NCBI GenBank assembly: GCA_038128265.1
Contig: JAYPJE010000016.1
Coordinates: 1-64,000, forward strand
Direction: 5' to 3'
Source: Gemmatimonadota bacterium
Lineage (GTDB): Bacteria; Latescibacterota; UBA2968; UBA8231
Length of the DNA: 64,000 nucleotides
The notes below the pieces were generated by a model. It did not search any database. It had not been told where the DNA came from and saw nothing but the letters and a program-made list of their open reading frames with translations. The translations under genes and the position numbers were made by a program. Shown here in pieces: positions 7,163 through 18,523 of the stretch (its first letter is position 1; every line of letters starts with the position of its first letter).

Positions 7163-9841
7163 TTAGCGAACTAGTCTGTTGACTTCGGCTAGCAGAATCG
7201 CCGAACGGACCGGCTTCATCACCAGTGCATCCACGTCAATCGCCGCCCCTGAAGCGTTCGCTTGGCCCTTTCTATCGGGCATTTTTAAGCCCAGGATGGG
7301 CATGTGGATATTTTGACGCCCCATCGCGTCTCGCAGCGAAGACACCCGCTGTTCCCAATCGGGTATCTTCATATCCATATCGACCAGCGCAATATCAATA
7401 CCGTCCGCATCGTCCTCTGCCGGGGCCTTATCGCGCCCGGCCAAGACAACGGTCCAGCCGGCTTTGTCCAGCATGCCGCTCACCAGAACCTGCTGGAACG
7501 GATCGTCAGCAAGAAGCAGCGCGCGTCGCCCCGAACGGGCTCCATTCTCGTCCGCTCCAGAGACAGTCGCGTCGGGGTCTTGGTCGAGCCGGACAGTAAA
7601 GCTAAACGTACTGCCCTCGCCGACCTGGCTTTGCACATCCATACTACCACCCATCATTTTCACCAACTCGGCACAAATGCTCAGGCCCAACCCCGTGCCA
7701 CCAAACCGGCGGGTCGTCGAAGCGTCCTCCTGCTGGAAGGCGCCAAAGATGGATTGCAGTTTATCTTTGGCAATACCGATGCCCGTGTCGCGCACCGATA
7801 CATCAACTACGACGCTGGTGCCTTCGAGATGGCTACCAATCGCGAGCTCAACCCAGCCGCTTTCTGTAAATTTTGCGGCGTTGCCAAGCAGGTTGACCAC
7901 GACCTGACGCAGGCGGACCGGATCTCCAAGCACGCGCGTTTCGGAAACTTCCAGCGCATCATAGCGCAGCTCGACTTTGCCGCTTACAAAGCGACTTTCC
8001 ATCAGCTTTACAATGGAGTCGCATTCCTCGCGCAGATCAAAGCCGATTCGCTCCAGATCGAGCTTACCCGCCTCAATTTTAGACAAGTCGAGAATGTCGT
8101 TGAGAATGCTCATCAGCTGTTTACCCGCCACTTGCACGATGCCTAGTGACTCGCGCTGATCGACGTTCAACGGCGAATCGAGCACCAGCTCCGTCATGCC
8201 GAGAATGGCATTCATCGGCGTGCGTATTTCGTGGCTCATATTAGCCAAGAATTCGCTTTTAGCCCGGTTGGCGCCATCAGCTACAGCACGCGCCTCTTCT
8301 GCCTGTTTTAACGCATCGCGCATTTGCTCTTCGGCATGGTCGCGTTTAGACAAATCCATCAGGCGCAAACTGGCCACGGAAATCTGGCTGCACAGGTCTA
8401 CCATAACCTCTATCAACGACGTATTGCAGCCCAGGTCGGAACGCAAGCCAGCAGCTAGTGACCCCTGCACAAAGGGCACATCAATAACCAGTGAGGGTTT
8501 GTACTCCTTACCCAACCCTCCATAATGCCTGGACTCTACGCTGCGCTCCCACACTTCATTGCGCTTCCAGTGATGAATTAGTGTGGGTAACTCGTCCGCC
8601 GTAATACGTACTTCCCTAAATATCACCCGTTCATTGAGATAATTATACGAGCGCACGACTCCGTTTTGCTCATCAATTAGGTTTACACCCCAGGCTTGAA
8701 TGTCGACATCTAATTCGTGGAATCCTTCTCCAATCGCACTAACCACCGACTCAAAGTCTTCTACGCGTTCCATTTGCAGAATGGCGTTCTGAATGCGCAA
8801 TTTAACCGACTCTACGCGCATTTTAAGTTCGCGCAGCACGTTTTCTCGGTACCTAGGCAAATCAAACAGCTCCACCCACTGCTCCATCGCGGCTTGGTCC
8901 TCGATTGAGCAGTCGCCCGCTTCACTCGGATACATACTTACCGATCCCCCACCCTCTAGAGGAATTTCTATCAGGCAGCACGTATCTTCTATACCTGCCG
9001 CGTGCAGACGCTCCTTACCAACTACAACCGTACTACGAGATTGCCACACTTCGCCGATCCAAGGCCGGTCGGCTAGCGAATTGGCATGGTTCTCAACCAA
9101 GAAATTTTTCGCTATATGTGTCGCATCGACATAGTAGCCATCGCGCGTAGAGGGAAAGTGTACCTCCAGCTTGGCGATGCGCCAGCCGAGTCCCTGCATC
9201 GCACTAACGAGCTCTGTATCAATGATGCGCTGTTGTTCGGCGAGCGTGTTCGCTTCGATCATGAGTTTGCGAAGGCGACTCTGCTCTATTTGAGTTTGCA
9301 GTGCACGCTGCGACTGTTTCTGCGCATCGGCTAACTGCTGTTGAACTTCTAACAGCTCTACATAGCCCATCTCTCTCTCGACAACGTTGGCCAACTGGGT
9401 TAGGATGAGGTTGTCCTCTTCGCTAAACAGCCGTGGCTCGGTATCGATGATACATAGAGTTCCAACCAATTGCCCGTCGGGAGCTGCCAGCGGCCGCCCC
9501 GCATAGAAGCGGATATGCGGCTCTCCGGTCACCAGTGGGTTGTCGGAAAATCGGCTGTCCTCTAGCGCATTTTCGACGATAAATGTCGAGGGCCTGTGTA
9601 TGGCGTGTCCGCAGAAAGAGACGTCGCGAGAGGTTGATTCGGCATCCAACCCATAGCATGCTTTAAACCACTGCCGATCTACATCGACTAGGCTAACGAG
9701 TGCGATCGGTACGCGGAAGATGGCCCCAGCCAATCGCACGATGCTGTCAAAACGCTCCTCCGGCTGCGAATCGAGCAGGTCCAGCTTTCTCAACGAATCT
9801 ATTCGCAGCTCTTCGCCATCCGGCAACTCGGGTTTTAGCAT
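7163..9841 (-). CDS. Hybrid sensor histidine kinase (GAF, HisKA, HATPase, degenerate receiver)
   Basis: N-terminal GAF (SFCGHAI...RFYAGRPL), H-box [15 protein letters not shown]-box [11 protein letters not shown]-boxes DTGIGI and GGTGLGL. Confidence 0.92.
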
Positions 9842-9987
9842 ATCATTACCATTTCATTGCATGTTAGCACATCTACAGCGCGGGGGCGATAACGCCCCAA
9901 ACGATCAATGTACACATCAAACAAAACCGCGCCATGTTTGTTGTTATGATGGGCGTGAGACCGCCAACTGCTCGGCGCGCATACATC

Positions 9988-11088
9988 CTAATAATCGGCA
10001 ACGGATCCGTCGCGCAGGCGGTTGTCCGGCCATTGAAATCGATTTTGTGGATCGCGGCCCGCGGCGATGGCCTTTTCCTCGTCTATTTCCACACCGATGC
10101 CCGGCCCCTCTGGCAGCGATACAAAGCCTTCGTCGTCCATCGTCCACGTCTTGTGGGCCACGCCGTCAACCATCTGATTGTCGTAGCCTTCGTGGATTAA
10201 AAAGAGCGGTATCGTCGCCGCCACGTGTAGACTAGCCGTCAACCCCAAGTACGACATGGTGCAGTGCGGGGCAATGGGGACGTGATGGGCTTCGCAGAGA
10301 GCGGCAATCTTGCGCATCTGGCTTATGCCGCCCGTGTGCCCAACGTCTGGCTGTAGAATATCGATGACCTGGGCTTCGAGCAACTCGCGCACTTCCCATA
10401 TCGTGCGGTCGCGCTCTCCGGTAGCCAGCGGCACGGACACGCTCTGGCGCACTTTGGCCATCGCCTCAATATTTCCCGGCACCCAAGCCTCTTCCAAGAA
10501 GAGCAGATCATCGGATTTGAGATAGCCGGCAAACTGCTTTACAAGCGGCAACGGCAGCATGCTGTGTGCATCGAACATAACCGCGCCGTCGCGCCCGACC
10601 TTTTCGCGCGCAGCGCGCACCCGACTGACTAGGTCCTCTACCTCAGCCGGCGTGCCGGCGTGGTACTGCGCCCCGCCGGGGCTCACTTTGATGGCCTTCG
10701 GGCTGGGATATTTCCAAATCTTATCGCGCACCGGCCCGCCTAGCAGGCGATATATAGGCACGCCATAGAGCTTGCCCGCAATGTCCCACAGCGCCATATC
10801 AATGCCCGAAATCACGTGCACCATCAATCCGCCACCGCGCAGGTTGCGATGGGCGCGGAACAGGCGCTGCCAGTGGTGCTCGATGCGCGTGGGATTCTCT
10901 CCGACGATCATTTCTCCGAGCGACTCGGCTAGGGCACAGGCGACGGCCGTATCCATATTGTTGATCTCGCCCCAGCCCGTAATGCCCATATTGGTCTGTA
11001 TCTTTACATAGCCTTTGCGGCCGGCGGGAATGGCGCGCAGCGACTGCACGCGGATTTGCGAACCCCTGTCGGCAACTGGATCCGTCAT
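9988..11088 (-). CDS. Mandelate racemase/enolase superfamily sugar-acid dehydratase (galactonate dehydratase-like)
   Basis: GITGWGE, SGIDMALWDIAGK, DAH, LEE, ATGER, QPD, APH. Confidence 0.88.
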   Translation of the reverse strand: MTDPVADRGSQIRVQSLRAIPAGRKGYVKIQTNMGITGWGEINNMDTAVACALAESLGEMIVGENPTRIEHHWQRLFRAHRNLRGGGLMVHVISGIDMALWDIAGKLYGVPIYRLLGGPVRDKIWKYPSPKAIKVSPGGAQYHAGTPAEVEDLVSRVRAAREKVGRDGAVMFDAHSMLPLPLVKQFAGYLKSDDLLFLEEAWVPGNIEAMAKVRQSVSVPLATGERDRTIWEVRELLEAQVIDILQPDVGHTGGISQMRKIAALCEAHHVPIAPHCTMSYLGLTASLHVAATIPLFLIHEGYDNQMVDGVAHKTWTMDDEGFVSLPEGPGIGVEIDEEKAIAAGRDPQNRFQWPDNRLRDGSVADY

Positions 11089-11089
11089 A

Positions 11090-12262
11090 TCAGCGACCCT
11101 TGGCCTCTTTTTCTTCGTGAAGCGCGCGCATAATCGGGTGATGACTCATGCCCTGCGCGCGCAGTTCGGCGTAGCGCTTCTCGTCGACGCCCTCGCGGTT
11201 CAAATAGCCGCGTATATCGTAGCGCCCCTTCTGCGTAGGCTCGAGCAGCCCTTCCTGCAGCATCAGCTCGAGCGGATAGCCCTTTTCCTGCAGGGGCAGG
11301 CGCACCATCTGATTTCTGCGCGCCGATTCGAGTAGCGCCATAAGTATTTCGACCGTAGCACGCGCATTATGGCCTGCACCGCGGTGGCCTTCGCCACCCT
11401 CGATCCAAGCGATGAGCTCTTTGGTCTGGCGCGCGTTGGCCATGCCACCAATGGTGTCGATTTTTTCCGGCGCAACACCCAAGTCTTCCATGCGCCAACC
11501 GCCTGTTTCGGCGTTAAAAAGGCGCGTCCACGTCTCCGTCGTCTCCACCATGCCCTCGGTCCCGCGAAAGACAAAGCGCGCACAGGAGGCATCTTGCATA
11601 TCCAAATCGCACTGCATAAAGATCTGCGAGCCATCGGCCATATGGATCAACCCCATACAGCCGTCCTCAATGGGCGTATCCCGCTCAAAGCGCTCGCTCT
11701 GGCGCTCGACGGCTCCCATCACCCACTCCGCCTCGGGGTCGCCCATGATAAAGCGCATCCCGTCAATGGCGTGCGTCCCACAGTTGAGCAGGCCGGCGGC
11801 CACCTTGGCATCGGCGCGCAGCAGTTGACCGATTGCGCCGCCCTGCACCAGTGCTCGTGCCCGTTCCCAGCCCGGCGTAAAGCGGCGCTGGTGGCTAATG
11901 ACAAGCTTGGTGCCGCTGCGCTCGCAGGCCTCTACCATTTGGTCGGCCAAGCCCATGCCCACGGCCATCGGCTTTTCGCATATGACCCCTTTGACGCCGG
12001 CATTGGCCGCGGCGATCGTCGGCCCAGGATGCAGCAGATGCCAGGTACACACGCTGACGATATCCGGCTGCGCTGTGCTCAGCATCTCTTCCACAGAAGA
12101 AAAGGCGTGGGCAATACCATACTCGTTTTGAAACTGCGCGCGTGCGACTTCGAGCGGGTCGACTACGGCAACGACCTCAACGCCAGCCAGCTGATAGCCG
12201 CGCAGGTGACTGTGGGCGATATCACCGCAGCCGACAATAGCCGCTGTATACGTACGAGCCAT
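11090..12262 (-). CDS. Gfo/Idh/MocA family oxidoreductase
   Basis: IVGCGDIA Rossmann motif, CEKPMA, HQRRF, GTHAID. Confidence 0.9.
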   Translation of the reverse strand: MARTYTAAIVGCGDIAHSHLRGYQLAGVEVVAVVDPLEVARAQFQNEYGIAHAFSSVEEMLSTAQPDIVSVCTWHLLHPGPTIAAANAGVKGVICEKPMAVGMGLADQMVEACERSGTKLVISHQRRFTPGWERARALVQGGAIGQLLRADAKVAAGLLNCGTHAIDGMRFIMGDPEAEWVMGAVERQSERFERDTPIEDGCMGLIHMADGSQIFMQCDLDMQDASCARFVFRGTEGMVETTETWTRLFNAETGGWRMEDLGVAPEKIDTIGGMANARQTKELIAWIEGGEGHRGAGHNARATVEILMALLESARRNQMVRLPLQEKGYPLELMLQEGLLEPTQKGRYDIRGYLNREGVDEKRYAELRAQGMSHHPIMRALHEEKEAKGR

Positions 12263-12326
12263 CAACAACCTCCCCTATACCGTGTTGGAGAGAGCGGCGA
12301 GCACCTTGCCCGCTCCCTGTATGGTC

Positions 12327-13139
12327 CTATTCACCGCGGTCCTGCTTGCCGATGGCCCTTAGAATAACGGACTCGGCCCACTGCGGTCGCAGCGCGTAGA
12401 CGGCGGCCAGCAGCTTGAGCTTCCAGGGCATTACCAGCTGGCGCGGCCGCTCCTGCATCGCGCGGGCTATGCGCGTGCTGGCCTCTTCTAGGGTAATCGA
12501 CTCGCTGCTGTGACGGCGCGACGTCGCGCCCAGCGCACGGCCGTCTGCACCCAGCGCGCTCTGGCGCAGGTTGGTGCCGCGCAGCCAGTGCGGCAGGACG
12601 ACCAGTACGTCGACGCCGGTGCCGCGCAGCTCGAGGCGCAGCACGTCGCAAAACCCCTGCACGGCGTGCTTGGAAGCCACGTAGCCACTGTGCAGCGGAA
12701 CGGGCACCTTACCCTGCACCGACGACACGGCGACAAAGAGTCCCCGACTGGCTTTGAGATAGGGCAGCGCCGCGTGCGCGCAGTGCACCACGCCCATATA
12801 GTTGACGTCCATCAAGCGCCGAAAGACATCGGTATCTTCGACTTCATCAAAACGGACCCACATGCTGATACCGGCGTTGGCGACGACAAAATCAATGCCA
12901 CCCCACGCCTGCACAGACGCCTCCATGGCAGCGCGAACATCGTCTATGCACGTCACATCACCGACCTGCACCAGCACGTCAACACCGTGCACTCGACACT
13001 GGCTGGCAACTTCTTGTAGGCGCTCTGCACTAGTGGCAAAGAGCACGAGCTTGGCTCCCTGAGCAGCCAATTCCTGGGCCAGCGCTGCGCCCAAGCCAGA
13101 CGAAGCCCCGGTCAGCACAACCCGCTTGTCTTTCAGCAT
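12327..13139 (-). CDS. SDR family oxidoreductase (DHRS7/11beta-HSD1-like subgroup)
   Basis: TGASSGLG, NAG, YVASKHA (YxxxK); start overlaps the stop of the upstream gene. Confidence 0.88.
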   Translation of the reverse strand: MLKDKRVVLTGASSGLGAALAQELAAQGAKLVLFATSAERLQEVASQCRVHGVDVLVQVGDVTCIDDVRAAMEASVQAWGGIDFVVANAGISMWVRFDEVEDTDVFRRLMDVNYMGVVHCAHAALPYLKASRGLFVAVSSVQGKVPVPLHSGYVASKHAVQGFCDVLRLELRGTGVDVLVVLPHWLRGTNLRQSALGADGRALGATSRRHSSESITLEEASTRIARAMQERPRQLVMPWKLKLLAAVYALRPQWAESVILRAIGKQDRGE

Positions 13140-14905
13140 AGCGGATCGCCGAATGCGCCGTTGCCTATCGAAAAAATATTATTGGGATCCATGGCGCGCT
13201 TGGCCTGGCGCAGCACTTCCATGCCGTTGGCACTGTGCACCTGCGGCAGAAAAGCGCGGCGCACCTTGCCGACGCCGTGGTGATGTGAGAGCGAACCACC
13301 GTGATCGAGAACGACCTGACGCAGCACGCCCTCGACGTCGTGGTAGGTGTGCTCGGGGTCTTCCAAACCGGCGCTTGAAAAAGCCATGGTAAAGTAAATG
13401 CATACGCCGGTGTGGTAGGTCTGGGTGACGCGAAACGACAGGTAGGGCCTGCCTTTAACACCGCGCTGCTGGCACTCTTCCCACAGCCGCGCGCGAACGG
13501 CCGACGTCACGTCTAAAATGCGATCCCATGGAACGGAAGTCTCGAATGTTTCCCCGAGAATGCCGAATTGATTGAAGAAGTCGCGGATATAGGCAATGCC
13601 AAAAGTCAACATGTAGCCGCGCTGACCGTTACTGGCACCGCCCGAAACGGCACCAAATTTTTTGGCTGTAGAAAAGATGGTCTTTTCCTGGTGCGCGACC
13701 TCGCTGGCCGTTCCCTCCATGGCAATGGTGCAAGCAGCCAGCTCATGCACGTCAAAGCCCTTCACCTTAAACAGGAAAAAGCGCTGTATGCGCTGCTCGA
13801 TCTTCTTCAGCCCCACCGCTTCGGGCTTGAGCGCCTGGCCAAAGCGAAATTCATTGTTATTAACCAGCCGGATACTGGCCGGCAGCACGCCCTCTCCCTG
13901 GCGCAGCTCTTTTAAAAACGCCACGCCCGTGGCGAAGTTGGGAAAGACGAGCGAACCAAATTTGCGCACTTTGGGCAAGGGGTAAATTTTGAGCACGGCC
14001 TTAGTTATGATGCCAAAATTGCCCTCGCTACCAAAGAGCAAACCGCGCGGCTGCACGCCCGTGGAATTGCGCGGCGTCGCCCGCAGCGTTTCCACCGCGC
14101 CCGTCGGCGTGATCAGCGTCGCCTCGAGCACGATATCCTCTATATTGCCGTACTTGTTTTTCTTCATGCCGCTGGCGTTGGTCGAAATCCACCCACCCAG
14201 CGTCGACAGCTCAACGCTATCGGGATCGTGTCCCGATGTGTAGCCCTGCGATGCCAGTTCGCGCTCCAAGTCGCGCCCGCAGATACCCGACTCCACGCAG
14301 GCCATCAAATTGTCTCGATCAAGCGATAGGATGCGGTTCATCCGGCTCATGTCGACCGAGGCTATTGGACGCTCCTCTTTGCTGCGCAGCGACAGCGCAC
14401 CGCTTACGTTGGTACCACCTCCGTAGGGCACCAGACAAACGCCGTGAATATTGGCCGCTTCGACAATGCTCTGCACCTGCTCTTCGCTCTGCGGATAGAG
14501 CACGAGGTCGACAAAGCGCTCCAGCGGCGCGCCGTACAGCACCCGATACACCTCGTTAACGCTGAGCTGGCCATGGCTGTGGCGCAGGCGCTCGGCGTCG
14601 GAGTCGACGATCTGGTCCTGTGCTAACACGGTGCTCAACTGTTCGATAAAAGCCGCATTGTGCCGCGCTGCCGGCAGCGGATCGCGTGCGCGTTCAGGCA
14701 GCACGTCCTGCGGACGAAACGACGTGCCGAGCACGTCTTCGGCAAAGGGGATAAAGTAGGGCATGGTATAGCCGCAGATGGGATAGCGATTGCCCGTCAC
14801 CCGCACGCTGCGCTCATCGACAAACTCAAAGTGCGTGTCGGTATAGCCCCATTTGTGGGCGTGGCGCTCGCCGGCTTCATACGAATAGCTCCCGTTGCCT
14901 CTCAT
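13133..14905 (-). CDS. agpS: Alkyldihydroxyacetonephosphate synthase-like FAD-linked oxidoreductase
   Basis: WGYTD, PYGGGT, GHDPDS.E.STLGGW, ASGMKKNKYGNIED, GSEG, PASIRL, ETSVPW, RVTQTY, CIYF and GGSLSHHHGVGK are colinear with eukaryotic AGPS as I recall it. Confidence 0.85.
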   Translation of the reverse strand: MRGNGSYSYEAGERHAHKWGYTDTHFEFVDERSVRVTGNRYPICGYTMPYFIPFAEDVLGTSFRPQDVLPERARDPLPAARHNAAFIEQLSTVLAQDQIVDSDAERLRHSHGQLSVNEVYRVLYGAPLERFVDLVLYPQSEEQVQSIVEAANIHGVCLVPYGGGTNVSGALSLRSKEERPIASVDMSRMNRILSLDRDNLMACVESGICGRDLERELASQGYTSGHDPDSVELSTLGGWISTNASGMKKNKYGNIEDIVLEATLITPTGAVETLRATPRNSTGVQPRGLLFGSEGNFGIITKAVLKIYPLPKVRKFGSLVFPNFATGVAFLKELRQGEGVLPASIRLVNNNEFRFGQALKPEAVGLKKIEQRIQRFFLFKVKGFDVHELAACTIAMEGTASEVAHQEKTIFSTAKKFGAVSGGASNGQRGYMLTFGIAYIRDFFNQFGILGETFETSVPWDRILDVTSAVRARLWEECQQRGVKGRPYLSFRVTQTYHTGVCIYFTMAFSSAGLEDPEHTYHDVEGVLRQVVLDHGGSLSHHHGVGKVRRAFLPQVHSANGMEVLRQAKRAMDPNNIFSIGNGAFGDPLC

Positions 14906-14939
14906 GGGCTCACTCCGTCCTTCTATTGTTTATCAATAA

Positions 14940-15683
14940 TCAGAATACCGGCAGTTGGGCCAGTTTGCTACCGGCTACGTTTTCGCCCCTACAGTGCCAT
15001 ACGCGGTGCGACGCATTGCGCTCGGCCAGCACCTTGGAAGTCAAGGCAAAGTAGCGCATGGTGTACCCACAGCGGCGCGTTGCGCTGCGATTGGCCGTCG
15101 CGCCGTGAACGATGCGCGCGTCGTGTAGCGAGCATTCGTTGGGCTGCAGTTCAAAGTACACCGCCTGCGATTCGTCGAGCTGGTCGGCGACGATCTGGCG
15201 TGGAAACGTATTGTTCTCACGGTCTACTTCTTCGTAGTCGGAAAATCCGTTGACCTGCGTGCCGGGCAGAACCCGCATGCAGCCGTTGTCGCGCGTCGAG
15301 GGATCAATAGCCAGCCACACGGTAACGATCTGATCCATCCTATCCATGCGTCCGTTCCAATAGGCAGAATCTTCGTGCCACGGCGTGGCGCGACCCACCA
15401 TCGCTTCTTTGCAAATAAAGTGACTGCTCCACAGCCCGATGTGCGGACCGATAAATGGCTCGACCAGGTCGAGCACTTCATCGGCGAGTAGAAACTCAAA
15501 AAGGGCCGGACAGGTAAAATGCGGCACGTCAAGCTGGTCGGCGCGCCGATCCTCCCCTTTGGAAGCCAGTAATTCCTCGAAAAGCGCTGTCAGACGGGCA
15601 AATTTTTCATCGCTAAATAGCGGCTCGTGGTGCAGCCAATAGCCATTTTCTTCGTAAAATTGAGCGGCGTTATCCGCAAGCAC
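14940..15683 (-). CDS. Phytanoyl-CoA dioxygenase (PhyH) family Fe(II)/2OG oxygenase
   Basis: Likely GTG start at 15683 after GGAGG; TPWHED (HxD), WLAID, NGCMRVLPG, H...HG, RRCG. Confidence 0.88.
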   Translation of the reverse strand: MLADNAAQFYEENGYWLHHEPLFSDEKFARLTALFEELLASKGEDRRADQLDVPHFTCPALFEFLLADEVLDLVEPFIGPHIGLWSSHFICKEAMVGRATPWHEDSAYWNGRMDRMDQIVTVWLAIDPSTRDNGCMRVLPGTQVNGFSDYEEVDRENNTFPRQIVADQLDESQAVYFELQPNECSLHDARIVHGATANRSATRRCGYTMRYFALTSKVLAERNASHRVWHCRGENVAGSKLAQLPVF

Positions 15684-15844
15684 ATTCGACCTCCAGCACA
15701 GGGTATCAACGGCGTTAACAAAGTACGATGCACACCGCCCACTTGCAAGCTGTATACCGCTTCCCCATTGGATGGGCATCGACAATATGCTACCTTAGAT
15801 CCTCGGCACAAACCCGTGCCTATCTGCCTCACCGAGGAGAAAAC

Positions 15845-16645
15845 ATGGCCAAGAAAATTGTGACGCCTGATATCAAGCGTCCTCCCAAGAAATTGATCAA
15901 AGCCCTCGAGGGCATTAGTGCGGCAACCGCAGCCGGCGAATTGCGCAAGCTGGGGATCCGCGACCCGAGCTTTGTCGGACCCGTGCCGCGCACACCGGGC
16001 AAGAAAGTCATCGGCCCAGCCATCACGCTACAGTTCATGCCGATTCGCGAAGACGTATATGCCGTAGGCGAATACACCGATCCCGAACTCCAGCTTCACC
16101 GTCATGCCCTCTATCACACGCAGCCGGGCGACATTGTCTGCGTCGATGCGCGAGGCGATATGCAGAGCGGCGTGTTTGGCGAAATGATGTTGACCTATTT
16201 TGCCGGCGCCGGCGGTGCTGGCATTGTAATAGACGGCTGTATCCGCGACTTTCCCCACGTAGTTGAAGATCTCGATATTGGACTGTGGATCAAGGGTACA
16301 ACACCCAACTTTCACACCCAGACCAACATCTTTCCCTTCGCCGTCAACGTGCCCATTGCCTGCGGTGGCCGCCTGGTCATGCCCGGTGATATTATCATTG
16401 CCGACGACGACGGCGCCGTGCTAGTGCCCGCCAAACTGGCGCCGCAGCTCATCACGGCCGCGCAAGCGCACGCTGAGTGGGAGGTCTTCAGCAAAATGCG
16501 CCTGTCTCAGGGAGGCCATCTGCGCAAGTACTACCCTCTCAGCGCCGAGGCACGCGTCGAGTACGAAGCGTGGAAAAAGGAGCAAGAAGAGCCTGCGGAG
16601 CATTCCGCTCCCAAGAAGAGAGCCAAGAGCAAGACAAAGAAATAG
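15845..16645 (+). CDS. RraA-like / HMG aldolase family protein
   Basis: ATG at 15845 after GAGGAG; GPAITLQF, GVFGEMM, DGCIRD, PGDIIIADDDG. Confidence 0.87.
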   Translation: MAKKIVTPDIKRPPKKLIKALEGISAATAAGELRKLGIRDPSFVGPVPRTPGKKVIGPAITLQFMPIREDVYAVGEYTDPELQLHRHALYHTQPGDIVCVDARGDMQSGVFGEMMLTYFAGAGGAGIVIDGCIRDFPHVVEDLDIGLWIKGTTPNFHTQTNIFPFAVNVPIACGGRLVMPGDIIIADDDGAVLVPAKLAPQLITAAQAHAEWEVFSKMRLSQGGHLRKYYPLSAEARVEYEAWKKEQEEPAEHSAPKKRAKSKTKK

Positions 16646-16690
16646 CTTTAGCGCAAGCGCCTGGTAGTTAGCGCGTGCCGCGTCGCCGTT

Positions 16691-18523
16691 TTGCAGCGCG
16701 GCACGCGCCCCCACCCCATAACTGGACAATGCCCCAAGGACCATCCCCCGCGACCCAACATCGTTTTTGTCCTCACCGATGACCAGGGCTATGGCGACCT
16801 GGGTTGCCACGGCAACGAGGCGATACACACTCCGAACATCGACCGCTTTCACAGCCGCGCCGTGCGCTTTAGCAACTACCACGTCGGCAGCACCTGCGCC
16901 CCAACGAGAGCAGGTATTCTAACCGGACACTACTGCAACAGCGCCGGCGTCTGGCATACGATTGGCGGTCGCTCGCTGCTGCGCGCCGACGAATGGACGC
17001 TAGCTGATGCTCTGCGCGAGGCGGGCTACCGCACCGGCCACTTTGGCAAGTGGCACTTGGGCGACAGCGCTCCCTATCGCCCACACGAGCGCGGCTTTGA
17101 GGAAACCGTCTACCACGCCGGCGGCGGCATTGGCAATACGGGCGACGCCTGGGGCAACGATTACTTTGACGACACCTATTTTAAAAACGGCGAACCCGCA
17201 CCCTTTAGCGGCTACTGTACAGACGTGTTTTTCGACGAAGGTATGCGCTTTATTGAGGAACACCGAGACGAGCCTTTTTTCTGCTATATCGCCACCAATG
17301 CGCCGCACGGCCCGCTCAACGTCGAGCCGCGCTACATCGACCCCTATCGCACAACGACACCGCACGAAGACCGCGCGCGCTTTTACGGCATGATCTCCAA
17401 TATCGACGAGAATTTCGGTCGCCTCATCGACCAGTTAGAAGCACTGAATATCGCCGACCAAACGATCCTGATATTCATGACGGACAACGGCACGGCGACC
17501 GGGGTCGAGCTAGACGCCGAGCAGTTTCCGCTTGAGGGCCCCGGATCGTTTAACGCCGGTATGCGCGGAAAGAAGGGATCGCCCTACGAGGGTGGCCATC
17601 GCGTGCCCTTTTTGCTGCGCTACGCCGACGGCGGCTTTGCGCACGGACACGACATCGATGCCCTGACGTCCTACGTCGACTTCATGCCGACCCTGCTCGA
17701 CCTGTGCGGCATCGACGTGCCATCCGAACGATCGTTCCACGGACACAGCCTGATGCCCCTGCTGCGCGGTGACAGCGACGTGCCCTGGACTGAGCGCACG
17801 ACCTTCTGCGATACGCAGCGCGTCGCCCGCCCCGTCAAATGGCGACGCAGCGCCGTAATGCAGGGCCCCTGGCGCCTGATAGACGGGCGGGCGCTATACA
17901 ACCTCGAAGCCGACCCGGGCCAGCGCAGCGATATTGCCGCGCGCCATCCCGATCGCGTCATCGCCCTGCGCGCAGCCTACGAAGACTGGTGGGCGCTCAT
18001 TTCAGCTCAATTTGACCGCGACGAACCCATCGCTCTAGGCGCAGACGGCGACGCCGTGAAGATTACGACGCACGACTTGCGCAACGAGAGCTGCAACGTC
18101 GCTTGGAATCAGGGACAGGTGCGCGCTGGACAGGTGTGCAGCGGCTATTGGGCGGTATATATCAAGCGATCTGGGTGCTACCACATTGAGCTGCGCCGCT
18201 GGCCAGAGGAAACAGGCTATGCCCTGCAGGCGGGCATTGACGGCGACGATAGCCACTGGCGCCGCGACAGCATCAAAGCCAGCGATGCCCATTTATACGA
18301 AGGTGGAGAAGCCATCGCCGTCCAGTGGGCACAGGTCGAGATCGCCGGCACGACGCTGCAAAGCGAAGTCTCAGCCGATGATGAAAGTGCGCAGTTCTCG
18401 CTCCAGCTAACAGCGGGTCCTGCGCAGCTCTTTGCCGCTTTCTACGATGGCAAAGAGCGCTGTATGGCTCCTTACTACGCCTACGTGCGCTATACTGACG
18501 ATGCGCTCCGCGAAGACCTTTAG
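16691..18523 (+). CDS. Arylsulfatase (formylglycine-dependent S1 sulfatase); start uncertain
   Basis: PNIVFVLTDDQGYGD, CAPTRAGILTG (CxPxR), GKWHLG, NAPH, DNG, KGSPYEGGHRVP. Confidence 0.92.
   Translation: MQRGTRPHPITGQCPKDHPPRPNIVFVLTDDQGYGDLGCHGNEAIHTPNIDRFHSRAVRFSNYHVGSTCAPTRAGILTGHYCNSAGVWHTIGGRSLLRADEWTLADALREAGYRTGHFGKWHLGDSAPYRPHERGFEETVYHAGGGIGNTGDAWGNDYFDDTYFKNGEPAPFSGYCTDVFFDEGMRFIEEHRDEPFFCYIATNAPHGPLNVEPRYIDPYRTTTPHEDRARFYGMISNIDENFGRLIDQLEALNIADQTILIFMTDNGTATGVELDAEQFPLEGPGSFNAGMRGKKGSPYEGGHRVPFLLRYADGGFAHGHDIDALTSYVDFMPTLLDLCGIDVPSERSFHGHSLMPLLRGDSDVPWTERTTFCDTQRVARPVKWRRSAVMQGPWRLIDGRALYNLEADPGQRSDIAARHPDRVIALRAAYEDWWALISAQFDRDEPIALGADGDAVKITTHDLRNESCNVAWNQGQVRAGQVCSGYWAVYIKRSGCYHIELRRWPEETGYALQAGIDGDDSHWRRDSIKASDAHLYEGGEAIAVQWAQVEIAGTTLQSEVSADDESAQFSLQLTAGPAQLFAAFYDGKERCMAPYYAYVRYTDDALREDL

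Follow-up and report, generated by a model that had tools for sequence, protein, structure and literature searches.

An AGPS homolog and a co-oriented classical SDR as a candidate ether-lipid gene pair in uncultured Latescibacterota

In mammals, yeast, and Dictyostelium, alkyl-dihydroxyacetone phosphate (alkyl-DHAP) is reduced by short-chain dehydrogenases/reductases (SDRs). The available text of two articles identifies the acyl/alkyl-DHAP reductases as DHRS7B and DHRS7 in mammals (PMC13200781) and as Ayr1p and two Dictyostelium SDRs in the other two (PMC13256971); the latter describes such enzymes as hard to identify, with SDR identities rarely above 30%. In bacteria, the closest described system is an operon of Myxococcus xanthus that, according to the portions of PMC13012113 available to us, encodes the alkyl-DHAP synthase AGPS (MXAN_1676), a fusion of a fatty acyl-CoA reductase (FAR) with GNPAT (MXAN_1675), and a member of the NAD-dependent epimerase family (MXAN_1674). 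Deletion of MXAN_1676 affects ether-lipid production, as far as the available text of two sources goes (PMC13012113; bioRxiv 10.1101/2025.10.10.681575), and the phylogenetic signal of AGPS is described as too weak to trace its origin (PMC13012113, same portions). Here we analyze a stretch of 64,000 nucleotides (the window), positions 1-64,000 of contig JAYPJE010000016.1 (C16) from the Gemmatimonadota bacterium assembly GCA_038128265.1 (GTDB Latescibacterota; UBA2968; UBA8231). In the window, a gene for an AGPS-like protein (P0001) overlaps the start of a gene for an SDR (P0002). We think it very probable that the two proteins catalyze consecutive steps of an aerobic, AGPS-type ether-lipid pathway, with a FAR and an acyltransferase that are encoded elsewhere in the genome supplying the substrates. 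The genome (G000) is assembled into 102 contigs with a total of 4.29 Mb and is 84% complete.

The phylum is not a new source of AGPS, as homologs have already been published. In the accessible parts of these reports, BLAST hits to agps are given for 67 of 92 metagenome-assembled genomes (MAGs) of Latescibacterota from the Black Sea, and also for Marinisomatota, Chloroflexota, and others (PMC11868695); for sponge symbionts from the Poribacteria, Acidobacteriota, and Latescibacterota (bioRxiv 10.64898/2026.06.23.733905); and for some genomes that have Ger homologs (PMC13159169). What we add concerns the genes that accompany AGPS. The gene pair and its main landmarks are as follows.

13133..14905, minus strand: AGPS-type flavoenzyme (homolog of alkyl-DHAP synthase, or alkylglycerone-phosphate synthase, EC 2.5.1.26), 590 aa with an ATG start, from Pfam and PDB matches
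13865..13882, minus strand: PASIRL motif, with Arg346 opposite guinea-pig Arg419 in the alignment to 4bby
13391..13402, minus strand: CIYF motif, with Tyr504 opposite guinea-pig Tyr578 in the same alignment
13274..13288, minus strand: SHHHG loop, with His541-543 opposite guinea-pig His615-617 in the same alignment
13133..13139, minus strand: 7 nt (ATGCTGA) shared by the end of the AGPS gene and the start of the SDR gene, read from the sequence
12327..13139, minus strand: classical SDR, 270 aa with an ATG start, classified by Pfam, NCBIfam, and motifs; proposed to be the acyl/alkyl-DHAP reductase because of synteny and co-occurrence

As far as its sequence tells, the 590-aa protein is an AGPS. 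When it was compared to all PDB chains with phmmer, guinea-pig peroxisomal AGPS (4bby) matched with E = 2.2e-148 and 498.5 bits, with residues 18-579 aligned to 95-653. Dictyostelium AGPS (2uuu) matched with E = 1.6e-86 and 294 bits, and the top chain that is not an AGPS, the putative GlcD-like oxidoreductase 3pm9, with E = 3.9e-27 and 98 bits. An earlier description of this locus from its letters alone (the sequence-only reading) had listed nine motifs of AGPS; all nine are present in the translation, and together with the match to 4bby, the resemblance is far above chance. In the numbering of the 4bby alignment, Arg346, Tyr504, and His541-543 stand opposite R419, Y578, and H615-617 of the guinea-pig enzyme, which are its catalytic residues. 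(PDB entry 4bca differs from 4bby in having Phe at the position of Tyr578.) That these positions are retained, as had been claimed, is also true of the family: in a 144-row alignment, the Arg and the Tyr are kept in 132 of the 132 rows of the AGPS clade, and the three His in 130, 131, and 131. The 12-row sister clade keeps the Arg, the Tyr, and the HHH as well, and these residues do not separate AGPS from it.

Could P0001 instead be a generic FAD oxidase of the GlcD or D-lactate dehydrogenase type? Its Pfam domains are generic: FAD_binding_4 (PF01565, 129.6 bits) and FAD-oxidase_C (PF02913, 132.2 bits), that is, a PCMH-type FAD-binding domain with a FAD-oxidase C-terminal domain. Also, the best NCBIfam model is glcD, at 159 bits far under its cut-off of 568 bits; no NCBIfam model is over its cut-off, and as a result proteins of this kind are labeled "FAD-binding oxidoreductase" in automatic annotation. 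(Many of the relatives are named "alkyldihydroxyacetonephosphate synthase" by JGI.) Nevertheless, we consider a generic oxidase to be extremely improbable. The 498.5 bits to AGPS compare with at most 98 bits to GlcD-like structures, and the alignment to 4bby covers the N-terminal part that precedes the FAD domain (query 18-130), while the GlcD-like matches begin at query position 86 or beyond. The Arg, Tyr, and HHH are kept, genes for a FAR and an acyltransferase are syntenic with AGPS in relatives, and some relatives have AGPS fused to an acyltransferase (see below). Clustering with generic GlcD or D-lactate dehydrogenases, which the sequence-only reading had raised as a concern, is not what we found: P0001 falls within the AGPS clade.

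The family is large. A word-indexed protein search returned 4702 relatives among 8000 scored candidates, and the best 120 of these are all at least 63% identical to P0001. When 1.84 billion cluster representatives were searched exhaustively, 1027 of them matched with E < 1e-30. Using one genome per GTDB species, 347 stretches of DNA encode a relative of AGPS, and we took the best 80 of these (L001-L080) for comparison of gene neighborhoods. By title, they come from Latescibacterota, Gemmatimonadota, Poribacteria, Chloroflexota, Acidobacteriota, Marinimicrobia, Myxococcota, and, in one case, a Thermoplasmatota archaeon. Phylum labels differ among the five nearest loci (77-94% identity), and the wider clade is mostly labeled as Candidatus Latescibacterota. 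More broadly, the titles of L001-L010 (67-94% identity) read Gemmatimonadota, Planctomycetota, Latescibacterota, or "uncultured bacterium," and the submitters' phylum labels are inconsistent. The archaeal contig (L068, from a MAG labeled Thermoplasmatota) encodes an SDR on the opposite strand, AGPS, and a FAR-acyltransferase fusion; this could mean that an archaeon acquired the genes by transfer or that the contig was binned wrongly.

We inferred trees with FastTree (144 rows) and with IQ-TREE (53 rows, quick search with LG+C20, rooted on the 12-row sister clade); support values are SH-aLRT only. Eukaryotic and myxobacterial rows were identified by their PDB scores and not by name, as the trees hold no named eukaryotic or M. 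xanthus sequences. The AGPS clade, including P0136 (717.7 bits to 4bby), has support of 100. Within it, P0001 lies in a clade with support of 99, whose sister is a set from Chloroflexota, Acidobacteriota, and Marinimicrobia (100 for the two together); a clade of myxobacterial type (97) and a clade of multi-domain fusions adjoin these. Two eukaryotic-looking proteins, P0136 (with a PTS2-like N-terminus) and P0147 (531.9 bits), branch outside the 42-row bacterial clade (100). The sequence-only reading had called the protein eukaryote-like. This is true of the bacterial AGPS family as a whole, but it is not specific to P0001: a representative of the myxobacterial type scores 568.8 bits against guinea-pig AGPS, which is above the 498.5 bits of P0001. 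Together with the trees, this speaks against P0001 being specially close to the AGPS of animals, an idea that we rejected.

The second gene of the pair encodes a classical SDR (Pfam adh_short, 169.3 bits; NCBIfam NF004825, 284.2 bits with a cut-off of 215 bits), with TGASSGLG at residues 10-17, NAG at 88-90, Ser139/140, and YVASK at 153-157, as expected for the class. The end of strand 2 (..LFATSAE..) lacks an acidic residue, which, as far as one may infer from this, would be compatible with NADPH. The closest human protein of solved structure is 11-beta-HSD1 (HSD11B1, E = 2e-25), and DHRS7B, DHRS7, and Ayr1 do not appear among the PDB matches. The DHRS7 subfamily is placed phylogenetically near HSD11B1 in the available text of PMC13200781. 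Calling the SDR DHRS7-like, as the sequence-only reading did, conveys nothing specific about it. A protein-atlas search with the SDR gave generic SDR clusters only, and the top cluster is mostly from Latescibacterota.

Both open reading frames are where the sequence-only reading had put them, and the start of the SDR does overlap the stop of AGPS, by 7 nt. The two genes are likely to be translationally coupled through this overlap. A gene of the PhyH family lies head to tail with them on the minus strand and ends 34 nt upstream of AGPS, whose ATG is preceded by a sequence resembling a ribosome-binding site (AAGGA..GGAG). None of the three proteins has a hydrophobic stretch that is long enough for a membrane helix. 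We also scanned positions 9500-17000 for promoters and terminators and found 0 promoter-like sites and 9 terminator-like sites, with 7.1 expected, which is uninformative as to the limits of the operon. In a search of sequencing runs, no RNA run was listed for the locus, and the one run listed has only 0.06 of its words.

The adjacency of the two genes is widely conserved. Downstream of AGPS, 900 nt or more of sequence is available in 74 of the 80 loci; we set aside the other 6, of which 3 have a partial SDR match. We asked whether a homolog of the window's SDR starts between -60 and +900 nt from AGPS on the same strand. This is so for 56 of the 74 loci, with a median implied gap of 51 nt. The titles of the loci with the pair name Latescibacterota, Gemmatimonadota, Poribacteria, Acidobacteriota, Marinimicrobia, and Planctomycetota. 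Identity to the window's SDR is 45-90% within its own clade and 28-39% in the loci labeled Acidobacteriota, Marinimicrobia, or Planctomycetota.

The presence of the two genes across related genomes tells the same story. We compared the 40 nearest genomes and G000 (41 relatives in total, of which about ten are single-contig genomes that are 92-99% complete). AGPS is present in 38 of the 41 and an ortholog of the SDR in 36, and these 36 coincide exactly with the genomes in which the identity of AGPS to the window's is 62% or higher. The five genomes that lack the SDR comprise three that also lack AGPS (in one, the contig ends at the neighboring gene) and two that have only a divergent type of AGPS (46-47% identity). 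When we compared coordinates by hand, 33 of the 36 pairs were within 2 kb on one strand, and one was split across contigs. One of the relatives with the 46% type of AGPS has a different SDR that overlaps its own AGPS gene (L094).

The sequence-only reading had named a lack of conservation of the linkage as an observation that would refute its proposal. The linkage turned out to be conserved, both in gene order across phyla and in exact co-occurrence among the 41 relatives. More generally, the inference of the sequence-only reading that a lineage outside the myxobacteria has a single operon for two consecutive steps of ether-lipid synthesis is well supported by comparative genomics, that is, by full-length homology to AGPS and its presumed catalytic residues, the adjacency in 56 of 74 loci, the co-occurrence, and the operons of relatives that include FAR and acyltransferase genes, which we turn to now.

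The sequence-only reading found neither a FAR nor a DHAP acyltransferase in the window and proposed a search of the genome for FAR and for enzymes of the GNPAT/PlsB type. Indeed, contig C16 carries 0 of the genome's 19 matches to PF07993 and 0 of its 2 matches to PF01553, while a candidate for each enzyme lies elsewhere, the FAR on contig C2 and a divergent acyltransferase on contig C12. The FAR (544 aa) is the single protein with a strong NAD_binding_4 match (196.3 bits), and it has a C-terminal Sterile domain (57.2 bits), which is the architecture of a FAR. The two PF01553 matches are a PlsC-size open frame of 311 aa and the 631-aa acyltransferase on C12, whose acyltransferase part (HQSVFD; family consensus HX4E) is in its C-terminal third. 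An AlphaFold model of this protein from a 17-sequence alignment (pLDDT 76.9, pTM 0.83) was matched best by Foldseek to PlsC of T. maritima (5kym, E = 9.8e-4, probability 1.00, TMt 0.59), with plant GPATs (probability 0.96-0.98), PatA, and human GPAT1 as the next matches of fold.

In 16 of the 80 loci, genes for a FAR (about 544 aa), the divergent acyltransferase (about 646 aa), and AGPS are called in this order on one strand and are followed by the SDR; one further locus has only the acyltransferase and one has only the FAR. G000's FAR is 39-42% identical, and its acyltransferase 43-46% identical, to the copies in the 16 loci, and each of the two has an ortholog in 40 of the 41 relatives. Fusion proteins provide independent support for a link between the acyltransferase, FAR, and AGPS. 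There are acyltransferase-AGPS fusions of 810, 1043, and 1324 aa and larger proteins of 2100-2700 aa that combine ACBP, a DegT-like domain, FAR, the acyltransferase, and AGPS. The giant fusions (P0155, P0157, P0170, P0190, and P0162) and the shorter ones (P0131, P0151, and P0160) form a clade of their own in the trees.

The steps that we propose would be as follows. The FAR would reduce acyl-CoA to a fatty alcohol, and the 631-aa protein, with its GPAT/PlsC fold, would supply acyl-DHAP. AGPS, a FAD enzyme, would then exchange the acyl chain of 1-acyl-DHAP for the fatty alcohol, giving 1-O-alkyl-DHAP, and the co-translated SDR would use NAD(P)H to reduce the keto group, yielding 1-O-alkyl-sn-glycerol-3-phosphate. 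Probably the SDR would also reduce acyl-DHAP to 1-acyl-glycerol-3-phosphate, and a PlsC-type enzyme would then acylate the product of the SDR. The activities, the cofactor, and the use of DHAP rather than glycerol-3-phosphate (G3P) as the acyl acceptor are what we infer from the homology, residues, gene order, co-occurrence, and fusions that we observe. Because CarF/PEDS1 was not found, the predicted products are alkyl (plasmanyl) lipids and not vinyl-ether plasmalogens, unless there is another desaturase. Specifically, we considered plasmalogens made via CarF/PEDS1 as the product and rejected this idea: its family, PF10520, gave no match in G000 (84% complete), its 94% relative, or a complete chromosome labeled Latescibacterota. 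Of five genomes tested, it was found in one, a MAG labeled Myxococcota that served as a control (148 bits).

Several observations count against the proposal that the pair makes ether lipids with this FAR and acyltransferase. Genetic testing of AGPS-type pathways in bacteria is, as far as is known, confined to Myxococcus. The acyltransferase is only a marginal match to Pfam's Acyltransferase family (PF01553, 23.8 bits with a cut-off of 23), just 2 of 17 members of its own family match, and a profile of the family has no match among PDB sequences at E up to 1. In G000, the FAR and the acyltransferase are unlinked to AGPS. The SDR lacks the N-terminal membrane anchor of DHRS7B: its maximum Kyte-Doolittle mean over 19 residues is 1.16, at a Rossmann strand (residue 7), and to judge from this the protein is probably soluble or peripheral. 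SDRs are numerous, with 32 to 90 first-look candidates per genome in the 41 relatives. An adjacent SDR is missing from 18 of the 74 loci, including all 7 that are labeled Chloroflexota; the others are L027 (with an SDR 1.8 kb away), L028, L037, L079, the archaeal L068 (with its SDR upstream on the opposite strand), and 6 loci of myxobacterial type. In 2 complete genomes of the class (G027 and G030), AGPS and the SDR are megabases apart. And the genes downstream of the SDR could tie it to a different pathway, though only the closest relatives share them. These and the other neighbors are as follows.

14940..15785, minus strand: PhyH-family Fe(II)/2-oxoglutarate dioxygenase (Pfam PhyH, 99.4 bits), accessory; its start (TTG at 15785) is a mechanical call and the true start may be further downstream
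11090-12268, minus strand: GFO/IDH/MocA oxidoreductase, about 60 nt past the SDR
9988-11088, minus strand: enolase-superfamily enzyme, galactonate-dehydratase-like, downstream of the GFO/IDH/MocA gene
7163-9841, minus strand: histidine kinase of 892 aa (GAF - HisKA - HATPase, with a C-terminal extension), downstream of the cluster

If the SDR acts on some other substrate, perhaps together with the sugar-acid genes that follow it on the same strand (GFO/MocA and the galactonate-dehydratase-like gene), then a different enzyme would reduce alkyl-DHAP. The function of an SDR is not readable from its sequence, and loci of the myxobacterial type use an extended SDR instead. However, of the 80 loci, only 6 have the GFO gene after the SDR (L001-L005 and L009; 4 more have weaker GFO-like matches elsewhere), and only 5 have a match to the enolase-superfamily gene. 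Both genes are found in L001 and L009, and L005 gives a weak match for the enolase-type gene. In comparison, the SDR itself follows AGPS in most loci across phyla and shares its presence and absence exactly across the 41 genomes. So we think it quite unlikely that the SDR has another role, and we prefer alkyl-DHAP reduction.

The PhyH gene raises another issue. Its protein is most similar in the PDB to EvdO2 (6e-15) and to human phytanoyl-CoA dioxygenase (2a1x, 2.4e-11). In animal peroxisomes, PHYH belongs to the PTS2 proteins, as does AGPS. A PhyH gene is upstream of AGPS in 7 of the 80 loci, and the two are fused in close relatives (an 849-aa open frame at 5221-7770 of L009, and the 845-aa proteins P0016 and P0017). 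Two genomes from the same genus have open frames of 854 and 858 aa that appear to be of this PhyH-AGPS type. An oxygenase of this family that adjoins or is fused to AGPS in the closest relatives might suggest that the same chemistry serves for salvage or remodeling, with environmental fatty alcohols (e.g., from wax esters or host lipids) being fed into lipids, rather than for making an ether membrane de novo. Also, the AGPS-SDR pair is separated from the FAR and acyltransferase genes in G000, and the record titles of many relatives point to MAGs of marine or sponge-associated origin. On the other hand, a FAR ortholog in 40 of 41 relatives, in an operon with the acyltransferase and AGPS at 16 loci, points to an endogenous supply of alcohol, and AGPS is nearly universal in the class (38 of 41 relatives; 91 of 97 genomes in the sample described below), as for a core function. 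Salvage seems unlikely to us, if slightly less so than another substrate for the SDR, and de novo synthesis remains our preferred explanation.

The class to which G000 belongs also seems to lack the usual bacterial entry into glycerolipid synthesis. In G000 and the 40 relatives, there was no match over the cut-off for PlsY (PF02660, TIGR00023), PlsX (PF02504; three weak matches were below the cut-off), or GpsA (PF07479). We then sampled 121 genomes evenly across the phylum, of which 97 (many of them single-contig) belong to four families, f1-f4, of the window's class and 24 belong to other families. PlsY and GpsA were found in 0 of the 97 genomes and in 21 of the 24, in the same 21 genomes for both, so their absence from f1-f4 is not a problem of sensitivity. 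The divergent acyltransferase has the complementary distribution: it is in 99 of the 121 genomes, namely all 97 of f1-f4 along with G048 and G061. (G061 has both systems and G058 and G064 have neither.) AGPS is in 93 genomes, only from f1-f4 (91 of 97) and G061. In two complete genomes, the sole match to PF01553 is one protein of the size of PlsC.

A wider reading of these patterns is that the backbone would enter as DHAP, the 631-646-aa acyltransferase would acylate it, AGPS would optionally convert the product to the alkyl form, and the SDR would then reduce either one to lysophosphatidic acid. Read in the simplest way, the class would have swapped the PlsX/PlsY/GpsA entry for acylation of DHAP followed by reduction, with AGPS in between, and this would be the main or only entry to glycerolipids. 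We offer this tentatively and think that it is somewhat more likely to be wrong than right, because DHAP is only the presumed acyl acceptor of the acyltransferase, because the genomes are related, and because of two exceptions. Since related genomes are not independent, the pattern of PlsY and GpsA versus the acyltransferase may stem from just one or two evolutionary events. The exceptions (G031 and G035) lack AGPS and the SDR yet keep the FAR and the acyltransferase, and they too are without PlsY and GpsA; these genomes must therefore rely on a different reductase or obtain G3P in a different way.

The operon around the FAR of these two genomes (L093 in G035 and L095 in G031) encodes an acyl-CoA synthetase, the FAR, the divergent acyltransferase, a HAD phosphatase, a zinc-dependent alcohol dehydrogenase (G035) or a 428-aa protein (G031), and a LarA_N-like protein. 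The operon of G035 ends with a YegS/DAGK-like kinase of the same type as the one beside G000's FAR. The operons of the two genomes could represent an AGPS-independent, elb-like route. In G000 itself, the FAR on contig C2 (L081) is flanked by a divergently transcribed lipid kinase of the YegS/DAGK type and by Lgt (prolipoprotein diacylglyceryl transferase).

Another variation is found among the AGPS loci. A locus labeled Marinimicrobia (L065:3045-8548, scanned with Pfam) encodes an aldo/keto reductase, a 383-aa protein of the HMG-CoA reductase family, a 240-aa acyltransferase, AGPS, and an SDR. By clustering of open reading frames, a gene resembling HMG-CoA reductase is upstream of AGPS in six loci (L065, L062, L066, L075, L032, and L041), with a small acyltransferase in between in at least three of them. 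An HMG-CoA-reductase-like enzyme, acting as a four-electron reductase of thioesters to alcohols, may take the place of FAR.

In the literature that we searched, as far as the available main text of the articles goes, we found no report of a conserved AGPS-SDR pair, of the divergent acyltransferase family, or of the loss of PlsY and GpsA in this lineage. Nor did we find, within the same bounds, any bacterial gene that is assigned to the alkyl-DHAP reductase step. So the pair provides a new, genomically anchored candidate for a bacterial alkyl-DHAP reductase, and an anchor from gene order is useful given that the functions of SDRs are notoriously hard to assign by sequence. Also new are a candidate module of four genes (FAR, the divergent acyltransferase family, AGPS, and the SDR) in abundant uncultured lineages from marine, sediment, and sponge-associated habitats, which is relevant to the dispute over where alkyl glycerol ether biomarkers come from, and what appears to be a loss, across a whole class, of the canonical route into lipid synthesis. 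If the acyl-DHAP route does operate as suggested above, then an entire class of bacteria would build its membranes via DHAP without PlsX, PlsY, PlsB, or GpsA, which would be a clear exception to textbook phospholipid synthesis in bacteria. Ether lipids would then be constitutive and possibly a dominant component of the membrane, and the SDR would be a core enzyme of lipid synthesis.

How does the locus compare to the known systems? The elb cluster of myxobacteria and Acidobacteria SD4, with its enzyme ElbD, is a route without AGPS, and G000's FAR is a stand-alone protein of 544 aa, as is the rule in its genus. For several other genera in its family, this FAR is matched best by the N-terminal portion of an ElbD-like protein of about 1440 aa (FAR - AMP-binding - acyltransferase; for example, L096:2383-6711 on the minus strand, in G027). 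The "standalone elbD hits" that are reported for Latescibacterota MAGs in the available text of bioRxiv 10.64898/2026.06.23.733905 would fit these proteins. Ayr1p of yeast and ADHAPR of Dictyostelium (EC 1.1.1.101) are classical SDRs that reduce acyl-DHAP or alkyl-DHAP; the window's SDR is likened to them by class, and its proposed assignment comes from gene order.

The M. xanthus operon resembles the window in being a bacterial AGPS operon with a reductase from the SDR superfamily. Two of the myxobacterial-type loci among our 80, L072 and L071, have AGPS, then a FAR-acyltransferase fusion, and then an extended SDR of the "Epimerase" kind (from Pfam for L072, and from a domain match and cluster membership for L071); in two others, L064 and L069, only the FAR-acyltransferase fusion was seen after AGPS. 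In contrast, the window's AGPS belongs to a separate, well-supported clade, its genome encodes the FAR and the acyltransferase as separate proteins, the acyltransferase is from another, divergent family, and the reductase is a classical SDR of 270 aa.

The closest analogy in terms of enzymes is the peroxisomal pathway of animals (FAR1, GNPAT, AGPS, and DHRS7B/DHRS7). There are clear differences: the window's proteins are bacterial, there is no peroxisome, and a PTS2 was not seen in the AGPS, which lacks the N-terminal extension of the animal enzyme (its alignment begins at residue 18, opposite residue 95 of the guinea pig's). The window's reductase is without a membrane anchor and is likened to DHRS7B by class only, the acyltransferase is very divergent, AGPS and the SDR are apparently coupled in translation, and PEDS1/CarF was not found in G000. 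Nevertheless, the same four enzyme types recur. The two AGPS proteins align over their full length with the same Arg, Tyr, and HHH, the FAR has the same architecture of NAD_binding_4 and Sterile domains, and the reductase of animals is likewise a classical SDR, according to the available text of PMC13200781.

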